DNA from: an uncultured delta proteobacterium
GTDB taxonomy: Bacteria; Desulfobacterota; Desulfobacteria; Desulfobacterales; SpSt-501
Length of the DNA stretch: 64,000 bases
Assembly: GCA_963716785.1 (NCBI GenBank)
Contig: CAVQUW010000025.1
Coordinates: forward strand, 70,601 to 134,600
Direction of reading: 5' to 3'
The notes beneath the pieces were generated by a model, which saw only the letters and a list, made by a program, of their open reading frames with translations, had not been told where the DNA came from and searched no databases. Below, in pieces: positions 11,033-16,825 of the stretch (positions within the stretch are counted from its first letter, which is position 1; the number at the start of each line of letters is the position of its first letter). A program made the position numbers and the translations under genes.

Positions 11033-11155
11033 TTACTCCCTCGAATTTGAAGCAGCGGCAACGGGCGGCTATCTTCCTTGAAAACACCTTCGGCTGTCAA
11101 CAGGAATCGGGCCGCCGGAGGTGACCATCTGTGGCGATCCGTCTTTTTTTCCTAT

Positions 11156-11221
11156 GGGCTAAAAGCCTTCAGTCTTCAGTCTTCAGCCTGCTTTTAGTGC
11201 TAAAAGTCATCCCGCTTGACA
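11156..11221 (+). repeat. intergenic element family A, copy a (CTAAAAG stem, 3x CTTCAGY heptamers, AAGTCATC box)
   Basis: gggctaaaagCCTTCAGTCTTCAGTCTTCAGCCTgcttttagtgctaAAAGTCATCccgcTTGACa. Related copies at 26435 and 56346. Confidence 0.7.
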
Positions 11222-11244
11222 TTTGCCCTCGCGGCAGTGAATAT
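11216..11244 (+). promoter_or_regulatory. candidate sigma70 promoter (TTGACA-17 nt-GAATAT)
   Basis: TTGACA at 11216-11221 and GAATAT at 11239-11244, upstream of the gene at 11332. Confidence 0.4.
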
Positions 11245-11331
11245 CGCCATAGGTCGAATCAGCGCCGAAAACCCGAATCGCCGGGGCGGTCGCATGCCCC
11301 AGCATGTCCGCTCCGACAGAAAGGACCCGCC

Positions 11332-11709
11332 ATGCCGAACCCCATCGTTGTAGAGATCAAGACCGTTGCGCTGCGCGGCGAGTTTTTCGACACCCCGGCC
11401 GGCCGGGCCATGGCCGATGCTCTGCCCATTGAATGCCGTTGGTCGCGCTGGGGTGATGAATACTACGGGGCCACCCGGCCTGCTTTCGGTGTCTTCCCGG
11501 GCGAGACGACCGACCGCATGGAAGTGGGGGACCTGGCCTACCACGCGGAGAGCGGTTGGTTTTGCCTTTTTTTCGGGCCGACCCCGGCCAGCCGCGATCG
11601 GGAGCCGCGCGCCGCGGTCCCGGTCCTGAAGGTCGGAAGAGTCGACGGGGATTGGGACGCGGTCAAGGCTCTCGGGCCGGCGGTCGCGGCCACCGTCCGG
11701 GCGGCGTGA
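11332..11709 (+). CDS. cyclophilin-like-fold family protein
   Basis: 125 aa from ATG 11332 (MPNPIVVEIKTVALRGEFFDTPAGRAMADALP...GWFCLFFGPTP). This pattern is typical of the cyclophilin-like superfamily of small proteins. Confidence 0.6.
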   Translation: MPNPIVVEIKTVALRGEFFDTPAGRAMADALPIECRWSRWGDEYYGATRPAFGVFPGETTDRMEVGDLAYHAESGWFCLFFGPTPASRDREPRAAVPVLKVGRVDGDWDAVKALGPAVAATVRAA

Positions 11710-11737
11710 GCCGCCTCGCCCCGCGCCCTCTTCGGAT

Positions 11738-11767
11738 GTAAACCAATTGAGCCCACGGGTCGTCTAA
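11738..11767 (+). promoter_or_regulatory. ECF-type promoter (GTAAACC-N16/17-CGTCTAA)
   Basis: An AAC...CGTC spacing of 17 nt matches the generic ECF sigma autoregulated promoter architecture. It lies 60 nt upstream of the sigma gene ORF. Confidence 0.5.
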
Positions 11768-11827
11768 CCTGTTCAAAACTCAGCATTTGGACCCGGCAAG
11801 AGACCAAGAACGAAGATTCGCAAGCGG

Positions 11828-12604
11828 GTGACATCATCCATCATCGTGAAGGCGAGCGAACCGATAAGGCGTATCGAGGAACCGGCCGCGGTGAAAGCAC
11901 CGGATGGGGTTTCCGGCGGGTGCGAGAGTGTGGATAACCAGAAACCATCCGATTCGACCAACCGGGGCAGCCGGTCCGGCCCGGACCCAAAAGCGAGGCC
12001 TTCCGATCCATCGGATGAAGCCGAGCTGGTTCGACGCGCCCGCAATGACGACCCCCGGGCCATCGACCAGTTGCTGCGCCGTTACCAGCAGAAAGTCTAC
12101 GGGATCGCTTACCAGCTTTGCGGTTTCGACAAGGATGAGGCCCAGGACAGCGCCCAGGAGGCCATGCTGCAGGTGTTCCGCAACCTCAAGCAGTTCGAGG
12201 GGCGTTCGCGGTTTTCGACCTGGCTGCATCGGGTGGTCGTCAACAGCTGCCTGGACGCTCGTCGCCGCCGCCGGCGTTGGACCCAGGTCATCTTCCCCTG
12301 GCGGGCGGAGCGGCAAGAGGACGCCGATTCAAGGACCGCGCTCGAAAGAATCCCCGATCCGCAAGACGGGGGAGACGCCTTGTCGAGGGTGGGCGGCCGC
12401 GAGCTGCGGCGGGACTTGCTCGCGACGCTCAAGTCGCTCTCCGAAAAGCAGCGGACGGTCTTCGAGCTGAAGGTGCTGCAGGAGATGAGCATCGCAGAGA
12501 TCGCCGCCATCACCGGGATGGCCGAGGGGACGGTCAAAACGCATTTGTTCCGCGCCACCCAGGCGGTACGAACCCGGCTGAGCCGCTGGGCGGAAACGCT
12601 CTAG
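11828..12604 (+). CDS. RNA polymerase ECF sigma factor (start codon uncertain; about 60-aa low-complexity N-terminal extension if GTG 11828 is used)
   Basis: Region 2 (ELVRRARNDDPRAIDQLLRRYQQKVYGIAYQL) and region 4 (MSIAEIAAITGMAEGTVKTHLFRA) are both recognisable. Confidence 0.85.
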   Translation: MTSSIIVKASEPIRRIEEPAAVKAPDGVSGGCESVDNQKPSDSTNRGSRSGPDPKARPSDPSDEAELVRRARNDDPRAIDQLLRRYQQKVYGIAYQLCGFDKDEAQDSAQEAMLQVFRNLKQFEGRSRFSTWLHRVVVNSCLDARRRRRRWTQVIFPWRAERQEDADSRTALERIPDPQDGGDALSRVGGRELRRDLLATLKSLSEKQRTVFELKVLQEMSIAEIAAITGMAEGTVKTHLFRATQAVRTRLSRWAETL

Positions 12605-12666
12605 CAAGCGCTCTCCCCGTCGCTTCCCGCGGGGACTTTAGGACGAACCAGGAAAGGAGAGTTCCC

Positions 12667-13236
12667 ATGCAGGCCTGTCGCAGCCATAAAGAGACGTTGT
12701 TGCTTGATGTTTTTGGGGAAATCGCCGATCCAGGGGCGCGCCGCAACTGGGAAATTCACTTGAGGGACTGCGCGGGTTGCCGGCTGGAAAGAAGGCGGAT
12801 GGGGGATCTGATTGCGAATCTGAAGGCGGCGGGAACTCCGCCCGAGCTGACTCCGGCCAAGGCGCAGGCAATGGCGGCCCGCATCGAGGGGTCTCTCGGG
12901 GATCGGGTCAAAACAGCCGACCGCCCCCGCTGGAAGTTTATGGGGATGCCGGCCTTGGCGGCTGCCTGTGCGCTGGTGGTGATCAGCGTGGCGGGATACC
13001 TGGTTCAAGGACGGTTCTTCGAACCGGCGCGGGTCGCGGGGATCGGGTCTGAAATCCATGTGCCCGATCAGGATCTGGATGTGATCAAACACTTGGATTT
13101 TTTGAAGGAAATGGACACACTCGAAAAGCTGGTGCATGTCGTCGATCTGCCCGACAACGGCCAGGCGCCGGATGACGGGCAACAGCCTGAAACCCAGGGA
13201 AAGAAAACGGATGGCAACGACCATGGGTACGCATGA
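12667..13236 (+). CDS. anti-sigma factor (zf-HC2 type) with one TM segment
   Basis: MQACRSHKETLLLDVFGEIADPGARRNWEIHLRDCAGCRLE carries the H-x3-C-x2-C motif. A TM helix (PALAAACALVVISVAGYLV) follows. It lies immediately after the ECF sigma gene. Confidence 0.8.
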   Translation: MQACRSHKETLLLDVFGEIADPGARRNWEIHLRDCAGCRLERRRMGDLIANLKAAGTPPELTPAKAQAMAARIEGSLGDRVKTADRPRWKFMGMPALAAACALVVISVAGYLVQGRFFEPARVAGIGSEIHVPDQDLDVIKHLDFLKEMDTLEKLVHVVDLPDNGQAPDDGQQPETQGKKTDGNDHGYA

Positions 13237-13678
13237 ACGGTGTGGCCTGCTATGCCGCCGGGCGGCTCTTTGGTTGGCGGCGGCCTTGATGGTGCTCCAC
13301 ACGGGTGGGCAGGCCCTCGGGGCCGACACCCGGCCGTGGAAGGGGATTGCGCCGGCCGGCCTGCTGATGGCCGCCGGCAAGGACCAGGACTCGGGTGGCC
13401 GGAACCTGGACAGCCTTTCGCCTGAAGAAAAAGCCCGTCTTCAACGCCAGTACAAGGAATGGAAATCCATGCCGCCGGACCAGAAGGAAAACCTGCGCCG
13501 GCGCATGGACGAATGGAACAAGATGCCTTCCGGGGACCGCCAGCGCTATCAGGAGCGTTATCAAAAATGGAAACAGGTGCCGCCGGATGAGCGTCGCAAG
13601 CTCGAAAAAAACCTCCAGCAATGGGAGAATCTTTCACCGCAGGAGCGGGATACCATTCGGCAGCGCTTCAGGAACTGA
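13211..13678 (+). CDS. DUF3106-like secreted protein with repeated W-x-x-(M/L/V)-(P/S) motifs
   Basis: Signal-like N-terminus, then repeats such as YKEWKSMPPDQKENLRRRMDEWNKMPSGDRQRYQERYQKWKQVPPDERRKLEKNLQQWENLSPQER. This is a typical third gene of such ECF modules. The start could be 13211 or 13223. Confidence 0.7.
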   Translation: MATTMGTHERCGLLCRRAALWLAAALMVLHTGGQALGADTRPWKGIAPAGLLMAAGKDQDSGGRNLDSLSPEEKARLQRQYKEWKSMPPDQKENLRRRMDEWNKMPSGDRQRYQERYQKWKQVPPDERRKLEKNLQQWENLSPQERDTIRQRFRN

Positions 13679-13847
13679 TGATGGCTTTGTAAATGGCCCG
13701 ATTTCTGCGTTGCGCTTTCCAGCCAGGGTGGGAAGGTCGCTTCGGCGCGTCGGCTGAACCGCGATCGCGTCTGCCCTCCACCGATCACCGCCGGCCCCCC
13801 GTGTGCCCGGGCCCGGCCTTTGAGCATCACCCCTGCCTGAAAAACCC

Positions 13848-13892
13848 ATATTACCCGCCCCCGCCCACCAGACACCGCCGGCGGGTTTTTTG
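13848..13892 (+). terminator. candidate intrinsic terminator of the ECF operon
   Basis: A GC stem (ACCCGCC...GGCGGGT / CCGCCGGCGG) is followed by TTTTTT at 13886-13891. Confidence 0.45.
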
Positions 13893-13962
13893 TCTCGCCT
13901 GATACATGTTCGATCTTCAGACGTTCTTGTTTGGAATACCAAATATTGTGTGATAATTATGC

Positions 13963-13992
13963 TTGACACACTATATCTCTATTGGATATAAT
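13963..13992 (+). promoter_or_regulatory. near-consensus sigma70 promoter (TTGACA-18 nt-TATAAT) in an AT-rich patch
   Basis: TTGACA at 13963-13968 and TATAAT at 13987-13992. The surrounding 13.90-14.06 kb is conspicuously AT-rich. Confidence 0.6.
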
Positions 13993-13998
13993 TTTACA

Positions 13999-14204
13999 TA
14001 TTCGCAATAAACTGATAACTATCTGTTTTGAAATACAATTTAATCATAACCAGATAGGCTGGCCGGCCATCGCACGGTCGACTGCCTGAAGGAGCGGCAA
14101 ATCCGGTCTCAGGGCCGACACCCCGACCGCAAACCTGTATCGAGACAATCCCAAGGGGCATTTCCGCCGGGTCAGGCTGCCGAGGCAGATTCTTCGGTTT
14201 TTTT
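13999..14204 (+). promoter_or_regulatory. structured 5' leader / riboswitch candidate ending in an intrinsic terminator, upstream of the ATP-grasp gene
   Basis: A GC-rich core spans 14050-14185. The terminator is CCGAGG-cagatt-CTTCGG followed by T7 (14180-14204). An AGAGGAGG RBS and GTG 14271 follow. Confidence 0.55.
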
Positions 14205-14270
14205 ACTCGAAGGTTCGTGAATTGCCGGCATCGCCATACTGATCCGAGGGATGCACAGAGGAGGTTTGAA

Positions 14271-15304
14271 GTGGCCGACAAATTTCCTCCGGCGGAAATG
14301 AGCGTGTTGCTGTTGTGCGACATCGACCCGGAATGGACCCTTGCCGAAAAAGGGGAAGTCACCTCGGCCTACTCCCGTCTCAGCGAGGCACTTGCCGCCT
14401 CCGGTTACGCCATCGACCTGCTGCCGGTAATCGATTCGCATCTGCCCGAACGACTCAACTCATTCGACGCCCGGCGCCATCTGTTGTTCAACTGGTGCGA
14501 CGGGATCCCCGGTGTCCAGAACAGCGAGTGGATCGTGGTGCGGGAGCTCGAACAGCAGGGGTTTGTGTTCACCGGCTCCGGGTCCGCCACGCTTGCTTTG
14601 AGCTACGACAAGGAGCGCGTCAAGACGATCATGGACCGGTTGGGCATCCCCACCCCCCGCTGGCGGGTCTACCGCACTTCGCGGGAAAATGGATGGCACG
14701 CATTCCCGGCGATCGTCAAGCCTGCTTTCGGTCACTGCAGCGAGTGGCTCACCTCGGAGTCGGTGGTGATGGATGAGGCCGAGCTCAAAGCGCAGATCGC
14801 ATACCTGGTCGAGGACCTGAAGCTGCCCGCGCTGGTCGAGGACTTCATCGACGGCCGCGAGTTTCACGTTTCCCTGTGGGGCAACGGCCGGGTCGAGATG
14901 CTGCCCCCGGCGGAGATGGACTTTTCCGCCTTCTGCGATGTGCACGACCGCCTCTGCACCTACGACGCCAAGTTCATCCCGGGGTCCCGGCACTACGAAA
15001 ACATCCAGACCCTGCTGCCCTCCCCTCTCGGCGAAGGCGAGCGGGTCGAGCTCGAAAGCGTGTGCCGGGCCGCCTACAAGGCCATCGGCTGCCGGGACTA
15101 CGGCCGCATCGATCTGAGGCTGCGCGACGGGGTGTTCTACGTGCTCGACATCAACCCCAACCCGGACATCAGCGAGGACGCCAGCATGGCCAGCGCCGCC
15201 GTCAGCGCCGGCTACTCGCATGGGGACATGGCGAGCACCCTCATCCGGCTCGCGGCCAAACGCCACCCGGTCTTCGGGGGGACAACGGGTCGGAGCCCCA
15301 CTGA
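14271..15304 (+). pseudogene. D-alanine--D-alanine ligase-family ATP-grasp enzyme; reading frame lost at the G6 run 15276-15281
   Basis: GTG 14271 follows a GAGGAGG RBS. ATP-grasp motifs are present (PAIVKPAFGHCSEW, EDFIDGREFHVSLWG, RIDLRLRDGVFYVLDINPNPD). The frame has no stop until 16217. A shift at the G-run gives ..PVFGGDNGSEPH* ending at 15304. Confidence 0.75.
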
Positions 15305-15315
15305 GGGGCCCCGGC

Positions 15316-16313
15316 TCAATCCCGGTGCTGCCGCCAGGGCAGTGAAAATTTGGCCCGCCCCTCTTGGTCGAAGATTCCCCAATGCGGACCGACCCCGCCG
15401 GTCTCGGACTTCCAGGGCTCGTCGAACATCTCGAACAGGAACAGGGACAGGCTCCTCGGTCGCCGGAGTACCGGGAGAGGTCGGTGATGAACCGGCGCTG
15501 GTTGTCGACACCGGGGAGGGCCGGCCCGTTCGGCTGCCCGGCGCTCGGCCACCCGGTTTCACCGATGACGAGCGGCTTCCCGTACAACTGCCGCAAACGC
15601 CGCAGCGATGCGTCGAGGTTGCCGCTGACCGCGGTCTCGATCGGTGCGGGGGCGAAAAACGGGTGGATGTTCACCATGACGGCATCGCTGTGCGCCGCCA
15701 GCTGCCGGCCCTGGGTCAGGTGGTTTTTGACGGCCGCCAGCATGGACATCGCGGTGGTGACCACGACCGGCCGGCCGGCCAGGGCTTTTTTGACCTGGTC
15801 GAGGTCCGCGATCAGCTGATCGATGCCGACCGGCCGGCCGCAGGCCTCGGGTTCGCCGGCCAGACATTCGTTGCCGACGACGATGCCGGCCACGTTGGGC
15901 AAGGTCTGCGCCAGGCGCACGGCCTCCTCCAGCTGGGCGCGGGTGCTGCGGGGGTCGCCGCGGTCGTCGTGGTTGAGCCCGCACTCGTAGACGCCCAGGA
16001 AAAACGACAGGTGCGGGTGGCTGCGGGCGGCCAGGGCGGGCAGCCGGTTCAGGCCGTTGTCCAGGCCGTAGGTGCGGATGCGACGGAACCCGGCCCGCGA
16101 CATCTGCTCGAGATCCTCGGTCAGCTGGGCGTCGGAAACGGGTTTGCCGAGCCCCGGGTGCTGGCCGATGCGGTGAAAAGGGCCATAGTTGATCCCGGGT
16201 ACCGGCCGGTCCTGTGAATGCGTCAGGGCCGGGCAGATCAGCGCCGCGGCGGCTACCGCCAGCAGACGCCACAGCGGCCGCCACCCTCCGGCGGGGCGTC
16301 CCGTGCGGTTCAC
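15316..16313 (-). pseudogene. glycoside hydrolase family 17 (beta-1,3-glucanase-like), secreted; 1-nt frame break near 15453
   Basis: Signal peptide, then GINYGP..., NECL and ETGWPSAG motifs. The C-terminal FEMFDEPWK..GPHWGIFD is in another frame (ORF 15316..15552). Confidence 0.8.
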
Positions 16314-16825
16314 CGCTTGACCCGTTTCCAGCGCATCAGATACCCCTCGCGCACACCGAAGCGCGCCGCAAAACCGGCTTTGGCCTCGACCACGGTCAAG
16401 GCATCCCCGGTGGAGCCATAGGTTTGATCGGAGCGCGGGGTGGTCTGCGCGGCGATGTTCAGGACCCGGCCGCGGGCGTCGATGAAGATGATGTCGAGCG
16501 AGGTGGGCGTGTTGCGCATCCAGAAGACCTGCGGCGCGGCCCGCTCGAAAAGAAAAAGCATGCCGCCCATGTGATCGGGGAGCACCCGGCCCATCAGCCC
16601 GACGGCGCGGGTTTCAATGGTGTCGGCGATCTCCACCACCAGGCTGGCGGCGCTCGAACCGTCCGGGCGTAAAAACTCCACCACGGCATCCGGGCGGATG
16701 ACGGGACCGGCGTGGGCCGCGGTGACCGTGAGCAGGCAGACCGCCGCCAAGGCCGACAGCAGGCGATCGGGCCGCATGGGCCTGGGAGTGTCGGGTGATA
16801 TGCGCATCGCGCAGCCTTTCTTCAA
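16310..16825 (-). CDS. DUF192 domain protein (secreted)
   Basis: 171 aa with the DTIETRAVGLMGR...GMLFLF...FWMRNTPTSLDIIFID pattern. It overlaps the GH17 start by 4 nt. Confidence 0.8.
   Translation of the reverse strand: MKKGCAMRISPDTPRPMRPDRLLSALAAVCLLTVTAAHAGPVIRPDAVVEFLRPDGSSAASLVVEIADTIETRAVGLMGRVLPDHMGGMLFLFERAAPQVFWMRNTPTSLDIIFIDARGRVLNIAAQTTPRSDQTYGSTGDALTVVEAKAGFAARFGVREGYLMRWKRVKR

Follow-up and report, generated by a model that had tools for sequence, protein, structure and literature searches.

A real, inherited promoter and a cis-acting leader precede an ATP-grasp gene in one lineage of uncultured Desulfobacterota, and we describe them here in a 64-kb window (the whole stretch of DNA analysed) and in the orthologous loci of its relatives. 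We give an even chance to the view that this is a narrowly distributed, unclassified cis-regulatory leader or attenuator, set under a promoter that is very strong and possibly gated by a regulator. An unclassified leader or attenuator is the best-supported reading of the data, and the leader is new, matching no described riboswitch class. In the mechanism that we favor, the consensus sigma-70 promoter would start transcription at about position 14000, and the leader, which occupies the ~270 nt between promoter and gene, would act in cis as a control region made of hairpins. These would begin with a 5′-proximal hairpin and a GC-rich one, continue with a core and with a hairpin that a U run follows, and end with a hairpin that abuts a very strong ribosome-binding site (RBS). 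The coordinates are collected in Table 1.

Table 1. Elements of the promoter, leader and downstream gene in the window, with the basis of each assignment.
Feature	Position	Strand	Basis
AT-rich conserved block 5′ of the −35 hexamer, TTTGGAATACCAAATATTGTGTGATAATTATGC	13930–13962	+	Alignment A1, BLASTN
Sigma-70-type promoter, TTGACA-18-TATAAT	13963–13992	+	Scan score 12/12
5′-proximal leader block: TAAC and AU-rich hairpin	14016–14057	+	Inverted repeat, A1 conservation
First GC-rich hairpin, counterpart of P1 of other clades	14055–14088	+	RNAfold
Clade W core, predicted three-way junction	14078–14183	+	RNAalifold
Core stem S1	14078–82 with 14179–83	+	RNAalifold
Core stem S2	14084–89 with 14172–77	+	RNAalifold
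Core stem S3	14095–98 with 14166–69	+	RNAalifold
Core hairpin S4	14104–08 with 14125–29; 14112–14 with 14121–23	+	RNAalifold
Core hairpin S5	14142–45 with 14161–64; 14150–52 with 14156–58	+	RNAalifold
Intrinsic-terminator-like hairpin, GCCGAGG/cagatt/CTTCGGT and T run	14179–14204	+	Terminator scan
Hairpin Pr, GCATC(G)CC with GGGATGC, just 5′ of the RBS	14228–14254	+	Helix 3, cross-clade
Shine-Dalgarno AGAGGAGG (14257–14264) and GTG start (14271–14273)	14257–14273	+	Direct reading
Ddl-family ATP-grasp ligase gene	14271–15304	+	PF07478, E 7e-18

The ATP-grasp gene and its promoter

The sequence-only reading had assigned the downstream gene to the Ddl family of ATP-grasp ligases, and the match to PF07478 bears this out. 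The best matches in the PDB are D-Ala-D-Ala ligases (~1e-14), at levels far under the NCBIfam cut-offs for real Ddl, and the product is a distant, uncharacterised Ddl-family protein. Its homologs are 335–350 aa long, typically ~344 aa. In the window the open reading frame (14271–16217) reads through the convergent gene to give 648 aa because a G6 run (15276–15281) is one base short; with one G added, the product becomes 344 aa long and ends in ...EPH*, as in all homologs, so that the true stop is probably the TGA at 15302–15304. An identical 648-aa read-through product is present in the public protein collection (P0121). The GH17 homolog on the minus strand (15319–16220) falls into two reading frames, with the break near 15470. 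This and the G-run problem together suggest either that the assembly has indel errors at homopolymers or that the genes are decaying, and one-base homopolymer details of the window therefore need care.

The ATP-grasp gene is alone on its strand and faces a convergent gene, that of the GH17 glycosidase; in L159 and L161, too, the downstream gene is on the opposite strand. The gene order is cyclophilin-like, ECF sigma, a 190-aa protein and DUF3106, followed by the promoter, leader and ATP-grasp gene, with GH17 and DUF192 converging; it spans 11131–16801 of the window and recurs in loci L001–L020 and L159–L164. It is kept in all clades whose ATP-grasp protein is at least 70% identical, and is absent around the 45–57% identical orthologs checked (five Smithella-type loci). 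The loci at or above 70% identity are orthologous regions from one lineage of uncultured Desulfobacterales-like bacteria. Within the neighbourhood the ATP-grasp gene is the most conserved, and the promoter and leader are always tied to it at a fixed distance. They are absent 5′ of the 45–57% identical orthologs (Smithella, spirochaetes, Bacteroidales), where the upstream gaps are short and variable.

Two further observations concern the DNA between DUF3106 and the promoter. A GC-rich palindrome, CCGCCGGCGGG, followed by T6 (13876–13895, plus strand), lies ~200 nt past the DUF3106 stop; it was seen by eye and not called by the terminator scan, and the upstream operon probably ends there. A 69-aa open reading frame (13693–13902, plus strand), called as a gene in L159 (6394–6603), is probably non-coding, because the alignment of the window with L159 has several 1-nt gaps there.

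The perfect consensus TTGACA-N16–18-TATAAT occurs once in the 64 kb, as the promoter in question, and not at all in 100 shuffles. It lies exactly where the sequence-only reading had placed it, and the AT-rich patch noted around it is real, the GC fraction being 0.36–0.39 across 13875–14099 against ~0.65 in the surrounding DNA. The same promoter is found at ~60 orthologous, syntenic loci (70–94% protein identity). Every orthologous locus has the extended −35 sequence CTTGACACAC together with TATA(A/C)T, separated by a spacer of 17 or 18 nt. Thus the hexamers, a spacing within 16–18 nt and the conservation in orthologs all identify a sigma-70 promoter.

The invariance of the promoter reaches well past both hexamers at the ~60 loci. 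In an alignment of 56 orthologous sequences (alignment A1), most of the invariant columns fall in the hexamers and in the AT-rich block immediately upstream, which BLASTN finds at 80–97% identity in ~60 loci and of which a 34-nt motif occurs a single time in the window. The invariant nucleotides of the promoter region (13930–13992) are ...ACCAAAT.T.GT.T.AT....CTTGACACAC.AT...TATA.T, and those outside it are A14018, T14029 and the RBS (TG...AGAGGAGG). The pairwise identity of the 80-nt promoter between relatives is 0.71–0.96, compared with 0.39–0.91 at the 4-fold sites of the same pairs. It is at least 0.80 in 15 of the 18 comparisons that exclude the window's cross-clade pairs; the three values for those pairs (0.31–0.39) are meaningless, because the comparison is ungapped and the 18-nt spacer is misregistered against the 17-nt spacer of the other clades.

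Transcription would start at ~13999–14001. The block upstream of the −35 hexamer could be an UP element and/or the binding site of a regulator. The flanks of the promoter (~−75 to the −35 hexamer, and around TAAC at ~+18) are conserved beyond the needs of RNA polymerase itself, so that initiation probably has a very high efficiency and may depend on a DNA-binding regulator as its gate. The strings GATAAT and GATAAC-TATC, in the promoter and at ~+18, have what we take to be a Fur-box-like resemblance.

Conservation and turnover of the leader

The AU-rich hairpin of the 5′-proximal block is formed by CTATCTGTTT and AACCAGATAG (14019–14028 with 14048–14057), a 10-nt inverted repeat that is 90% complementary. 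The TAAC (14016–14019) is nearly invariant in alignment A1 and is followed by a conserved CTGAC-type block; the 5′-proximal block is kept even where lineages have deleted the middle of the leader (group F). For the GC-rich hairpin that follows, RNAfold gives −15.4 kcal/mol (14052–14090), and its outer stem (14055–14059 with 14084–14088) competes with stem S2 of the core. At the other end of the leader, hairpin Pr is paired in 95% of cells over 34 leaders, with one pair varying between U-A, U-G and C-G, and its 3′ arm together with the RBS (TGC.GAGAGGAGG) is nearly invariant in alignment A1. The Shine-Dalgarno sequence ends 6 nt before the GTG, the RBS columns are invariant in the same alignment, and all orthologs have GTG or ATG at the matching position. 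The RBS and start codon are thus at the positions given by the sequence-only reading, as are the four strings that it had quoted from the core (14088–14100, 14107–14113, 14151–14160 and 14171–14181).

No open reading frame with a start codon and RBS was found within the leader, hence there is no leader peptide; a short AUG reading frame after AAGGAGC in some clade A leaders is not conserved. Two other candidates were rejected. An alternative pairing of the conserved GUAUC with the arm GAUGC of the RBS hairpin is broken in L161 (GGAUC and GGUGC), and a sigma-54-like TGGCA-N-TTGCA 5′ of the RBS hairpin has a GG-to-GC spacing that varies with the clade (9–15 nt) and thus does not qualify as a conserved −24/−12 element.

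How general is the leader among relatives? Protein-guided scans gave 164 loci. The length of the leader is held at ~290 nt (286–302 nt in clades A–D, 269–278 nt in clade W) despite turnover of its sequence. The exceptions are clade E (~231 nt) and five individual leaders (L007 3860–3997, L087 3860–3997, L103 2428–2565, L112 197–331 and L065 3843–3997) from which a middle part of 150–170 nt has been lost. The lost part comprises hairpin P1, the central domain and the left half of hairpin T. What these five loci retain is the promoter, the 5′ block, the last ~85 nt of the leader with the RBS-proximal hairpin, and the gene. The end points of the deletions differ, which suggests independent events.

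Over its whole length the leader changes at about the rate of 4-fold sites (identity 0.81 compared with 0.80 between the window and L159), and inside clades A and C its identity is 0.63–0.71, compared with 0.58–0.69 at synonymous sites. Between 14030 and 14250 there is no invariant column in the 56 leaders. The central domain has been remodelled between clades and several lineages are without it, and RNAalifold on the all-clade MAFFT alignment returns 0 pairs, that is, no consensus fold. Nor is the whole leader more stable than shuffled sequence in the window (z −0.4 to −0.62), and the term 'structured' can therefore not be derived from energy alone. The mean folding z of 31 leaders is −1.1, and it falls below −2 in 6 of them.

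Nevertheless, three hairpins are in register across the clades. P1 lies early in the leader, T occupies positions −93 to −77 relative to the start codon, and Pr is directly next to the RBS. In these three hairpins 77% of cells are paired, compared with 31–48% when the partner strand is slid, and the covariation score of 0.233 stands against 0.06–0.09 in the slid controls and is reached by 0 of 500 shuffles. P1 changes on both sides in 9 of its 10 pairs across clades, and its loop passes from the conserved UGCCACAAU to GAAA. The leader is thus conserved in position, in length and in three hairpins upstream of orthologous ATP-grasp genes. The sequence-only reading had named the combination of no Rfam match and no conservation of the leader as fatal to it; conservation is what we find. 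An aptamer-like core conserved across lineages is not supported, since no column is invariant, the center varies by clade and has been lost in several lineages, and near-invariant aptamer nucleotides were not found across the carrier lineages in the 56 orthologous leaders.

A long-range interaction with the RBS was sought with RNAduplex, pairing the RBS region with the upstream leader and comparing with shuffles. A distal anti-Shine-Dalgarno sequence is significant in clade A alone, with z down to −2.9 and its site fixed at −125 to −107; the window (z +0.5) and the other clades give nothing significant, and a universal distal anti-Shine-Dalgarno element is rejected. In clade A (L019 3710–4006, L096 2278–2585) AAGGAGC, a downstream GCUCCGC and the RBS region GCGGAGAGGAGG form a possible trio of Shine-Dalgarno mimic, anti-Shine-Dalgarno and Shine-Dalgarno. 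L096 has CUCCAC with GUGGAG where its relatives have CUCCGC with GCGGAG, a compensatory change, and L005 holds the uncompensated intermediate.

These data bear on a reading in which control is exerted essentially at the level of DNA, by a regulator bound to the conserved flanks of the promoter. On this view the leader would amount to an extended 5′ UTR that drifts in sequence, its hairpins would serve only mRNA stability or the efficiency of translation, and the hairpin followed by T7 would be incidental. By far the strongest conservation lies around the promoter, including its spacer and the segment from ~−75 to the −35 hexamer; the leader as a whole changes at a near-neutral rate, its middle is dispensable in several lineages that keep the 5′ block and the RBS-proximal part, its folding energy is ordinary and its terminator, as described below, is not conserved. 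However, a pure spacer would not show the conservation of the 96-nt core of clade W, which is above that of neutral sites, and the constant length of ~290 nt and the covariation of the internal hairpins also speak against this. We consider control at the DNA level rather unlikely.

The clade W core and the terminator-like hairpin

Clade W comprises four distinct leaders. Besides that of the window they come from L159, with a protein identity of 94%, and from L160 and the L161 type, both at 88%. Across 14087–14182 the mean pairwise identity of these four sequences in 12-nt windows is 0.81–1.0, and at least 0.89 in all windows but one, compared with 0.42–0.75 in the flanks of the core and 0.72–0.80 at 4-fold sites. 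This 96-nt core is under purifying selection in clade W, and to this extent, within four distinct sequences, the sequence-only reading is supported.

RNAalifold predicts a three-way junction for the core, in which a long closing stem (S1-S2-S3) carries two hairpins (S4 and S5). Of its 30 pairs, 24 never vary among the four sequences and two are compensatory (U-A to C-G in S1, G-C to A-U in S3), both marking one and the same split. Three further changes lead to wobble pairs and the remainder lie in loops, so that every substitution but one fits the predicted fold. The cells of the fold are 99% paired, compared with 27–54% in slid controls, in a fold that was derived from these same four sequences. 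In 476 kb of sequence, which takes in the leaders of the other clades, a covariance model of the core (R1) matches clade W alone; the core was thus rejected as an element present elsewhere in the window or in clades A–E.

The terminator-like hairpin described by the sequence-only reading lies where it was placed, with CCGAGG/cagatt/CTTCGG at 14180–14197 followed by T7 at 14198–14204. The hairpin (14179–14198) has seven pairs, four of them G-C, and a loop of 6, with a stability of −8.4 kcal/mol. A G+C-rich hairpin with a U run thus lies between promoter and RBS, as in an attenuator; such sites are not rare by chance, with 2 found and 0.8 ± 1.0 expected in 800 nt. At −93 to −77 relative to the start codon, clades W, A, B and C have a hairpin in which 83% of cells are paired. 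What qualifies as a terminator there is present in 11 of 52 leaders: 2 of the 3 from clade W, 4 of the 13 from A and 5 of the 10 from C, whereas clades B, D, E and F have no such leader. L159 has a hairpin and U6 formed by a different sequence. L160 and L161 (88% identical) keep the U run, without a stable hairpin before it, and do not qualify. The proposed layout of promoter, leader, terminator and RBS is real in this window, and transcription attenuation as a conserved mechanism is not supported, given the 11 of 52 leaders and the failure of L160 and L161.

In the predicted structure of the window the 3′ strand of S1 (14179–83) overlaps the left arm of the terminator, the GC-rich hairpin at 14055–88 competes with S2, and a three-state attenuator can be drawn. 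The minimum-energy fold, however, contains S2 and S3 as well as the terminator; S1 alone competes with the terminator, and in the window S1 is weak, having an A.C mismatch. The proposed switch is therefore thermodynamically marginal.

Within these limits we favor the following mechanism for the leader/attenuator. In the window and in L159 the hairpin and U run (14179–14204 in the window, with U7) are a plausible intrinsic terminator, at which a share of the transcripts probably ends, and its use may be modulated by the closing stem of the core. Read-through would be favored when the closing stem extends through S1 (14078–82 with 14179–83) and holds the left arm of the terminator; termination would be favored when the upstream hairpin (14055–88) captures the S2 strand instead. 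The balance might be shifted by a protein, by a small molecule or by nothing specific, and the transcripts that read through would be translated from the GTG at 14271. Against this explanation we count the ordinary folding energy, a leader rate equal to that of 4-fold sites, the lack of an all-clade consensus fold, a terminator that is not conserved, the coexistence of core and terminator, and the fact that the middle can be deleted with the gene kept.

The same elements could be read as a narrow new metabolite riboswitch, in which the core (14084–14177) is a ligand-binding three-way-junction aptamer and an ON switch for the ligase, the ligand stabilising the S1 extension of the closing stem and so preventing the terminator. 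The order of promoter, conserved core, terminator and RBS fits this, as do the purifying selection on the core, the predicted junction with two compensatory pairs in its closing stems and its variable positions in loops or wobbles, and the overlap of S1 with the terminator arm. Moreover, the expression platform varies among close relatives while the core is constant, as in riboswitch families. Yet there are four distinct sequences, from which the fold itself was taken and in which both compensatory pairs mark one split; the core model has no matches in clades A–E or elsewhere, and the orthologous leaders are built differently in their center, with no invariant nucleotides. Recurrent natural deletions take out the core region, and the fold of minimum energy has room for terminator and core together. 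The terminator lacks conservation, the folding energy is ordinary, and none of 4227 Rfam families matches. On balance we find a new riboswitch of this kind improbable. About equally improbable is the version in which the core (~14084–14177) is a narrow undescribed aptamer that switches on the ligase by blocking the hairpin at 14179–14204 and the centers of the sister clades are variants of the same sensor with translational platforms.

Very unlikely, in our judgement, is a trans-acting sRNA of ~205 nt (~14000–14204), independent or derived from the leader, with the ligase expressed by read-through only. Strong promoters with an AT-rich upstream region are linked to highly expressed RNAs, and the consensus promoter has such a region, as expected of a strong one. 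The conserved body ending in a hairpin and T7 would also suit an sRNA, as would the U run, which is kept at the terminator position in all four clade W sequences. However, the element invariably keeps a fixed spacing to the RBS of the same gene, for which there is no other promoter, and conservation extends over the 55 nt past the terminator along with the RBS hairpin. In addition, no conserved single-stranded seed is common to the clades, and the terminator is missing in most relatives.

If the leader/attenuator is indeed regulatory, then this orphan Ddl-like ligase would be a tightly controlled and probably highly expressed function in a widespread group of uncultured relatives of sulfate reducers from sediments and wetlands, and the core RNA would offer a handle on the substrate of the enzyme or on its signal. 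The locus also shows how much remodelling a leader can undergo with no change in its promoter, its length and its terminal hairpins, and it counsels caution when a layout of promoter, hairpin and terminator that is known from one genome is to be called a riboswitch.

Relation to known RNA families

The 4227 covariance models of Rfam 15 were run on the window at the gathering score, and on both strands of 13880–14300 at E ≤ 10. In the latter (421 nt) the only matches are GlsR14 (a snoRNA, E 0.45) and SpF59 (a Streptococcus sRNA, E 6.5), which are noise. No family was found in 15 homologous loci at the gathering score, nor in two more at E ≤ 5. The sole Rfam family in the window at the gathering score is a cobalamin riboswitch (RF00174, 35579–35791, minus strand, 69.3 bits, E 5e-15), 21 kb from the leader. 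A full-text search of the literature found no RNA motif described as linked to this ATP-grasp gene family.

The sequence-only reading had remarked on resemblances to the glycine riboswitch (RF00504) and to GEMM-I, the c-di-GMP-I riboswitch (RF01051). Neither gives a match at E ≤ 10 in 13880–14300 or any in the homologous loci; given these empty scans the resemblances are chance strings. The short purine-rich strings of the leader (GAAGGAGC, CTCAGG) recall the conserved cores of the glycine riboswitch. Unlike that riboswitch, the leader has no tandem aptamer and the GGAGAG/CUCUC helix cannot be drawn, and the gene downstream is a Ddl-like ATP-grasp ligase and not one of glycine cleavage or transport. 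The likeness to GEMM-I is confined to the loose strings GGCAAA and CCGCAAACC; GEMM-I has an architecture of two hairpins, whereas the core is predicted to be a three-way junction.

The leader can also be compared with transcription-attenuation ON riboswitches and attenuators of the adenine pbuE/ydhL type. It shares with them the order of promoter, stem-closed domain, intrinsic terminator and RBS, and in its predicted fold, too, the closing stem shares its 3′ strand with the terminator's left arm. It differs in that the terminator is contested by just the outermost 4–5 pairs, which give way to it in the minimum-energy fold, and in that the domain has no Rfam match and the terminator is missing in most orthologs.

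Finally, some mRNA leaders depend on proteins, such as the ribosomal-protein leaders and those with CsrA-type GGA sites. Like these, the leader is structured and lineage specific, with a hairpin at the RBS and a Shine-Dalgarno-like AAGGAGC (14089–14095) whose conservation covers clades W and A as well as part of B and C. The spacing of its motifs differs from that of known CsrA sites. The set of AAGGAGC, GCUCCGC and GCGGAGAGG, which in clade A resembles a Shine-Dalgarno mimic, an anti-Shine-Dalgarno and a Shine-Dalgarno sequence, was not found in the window.
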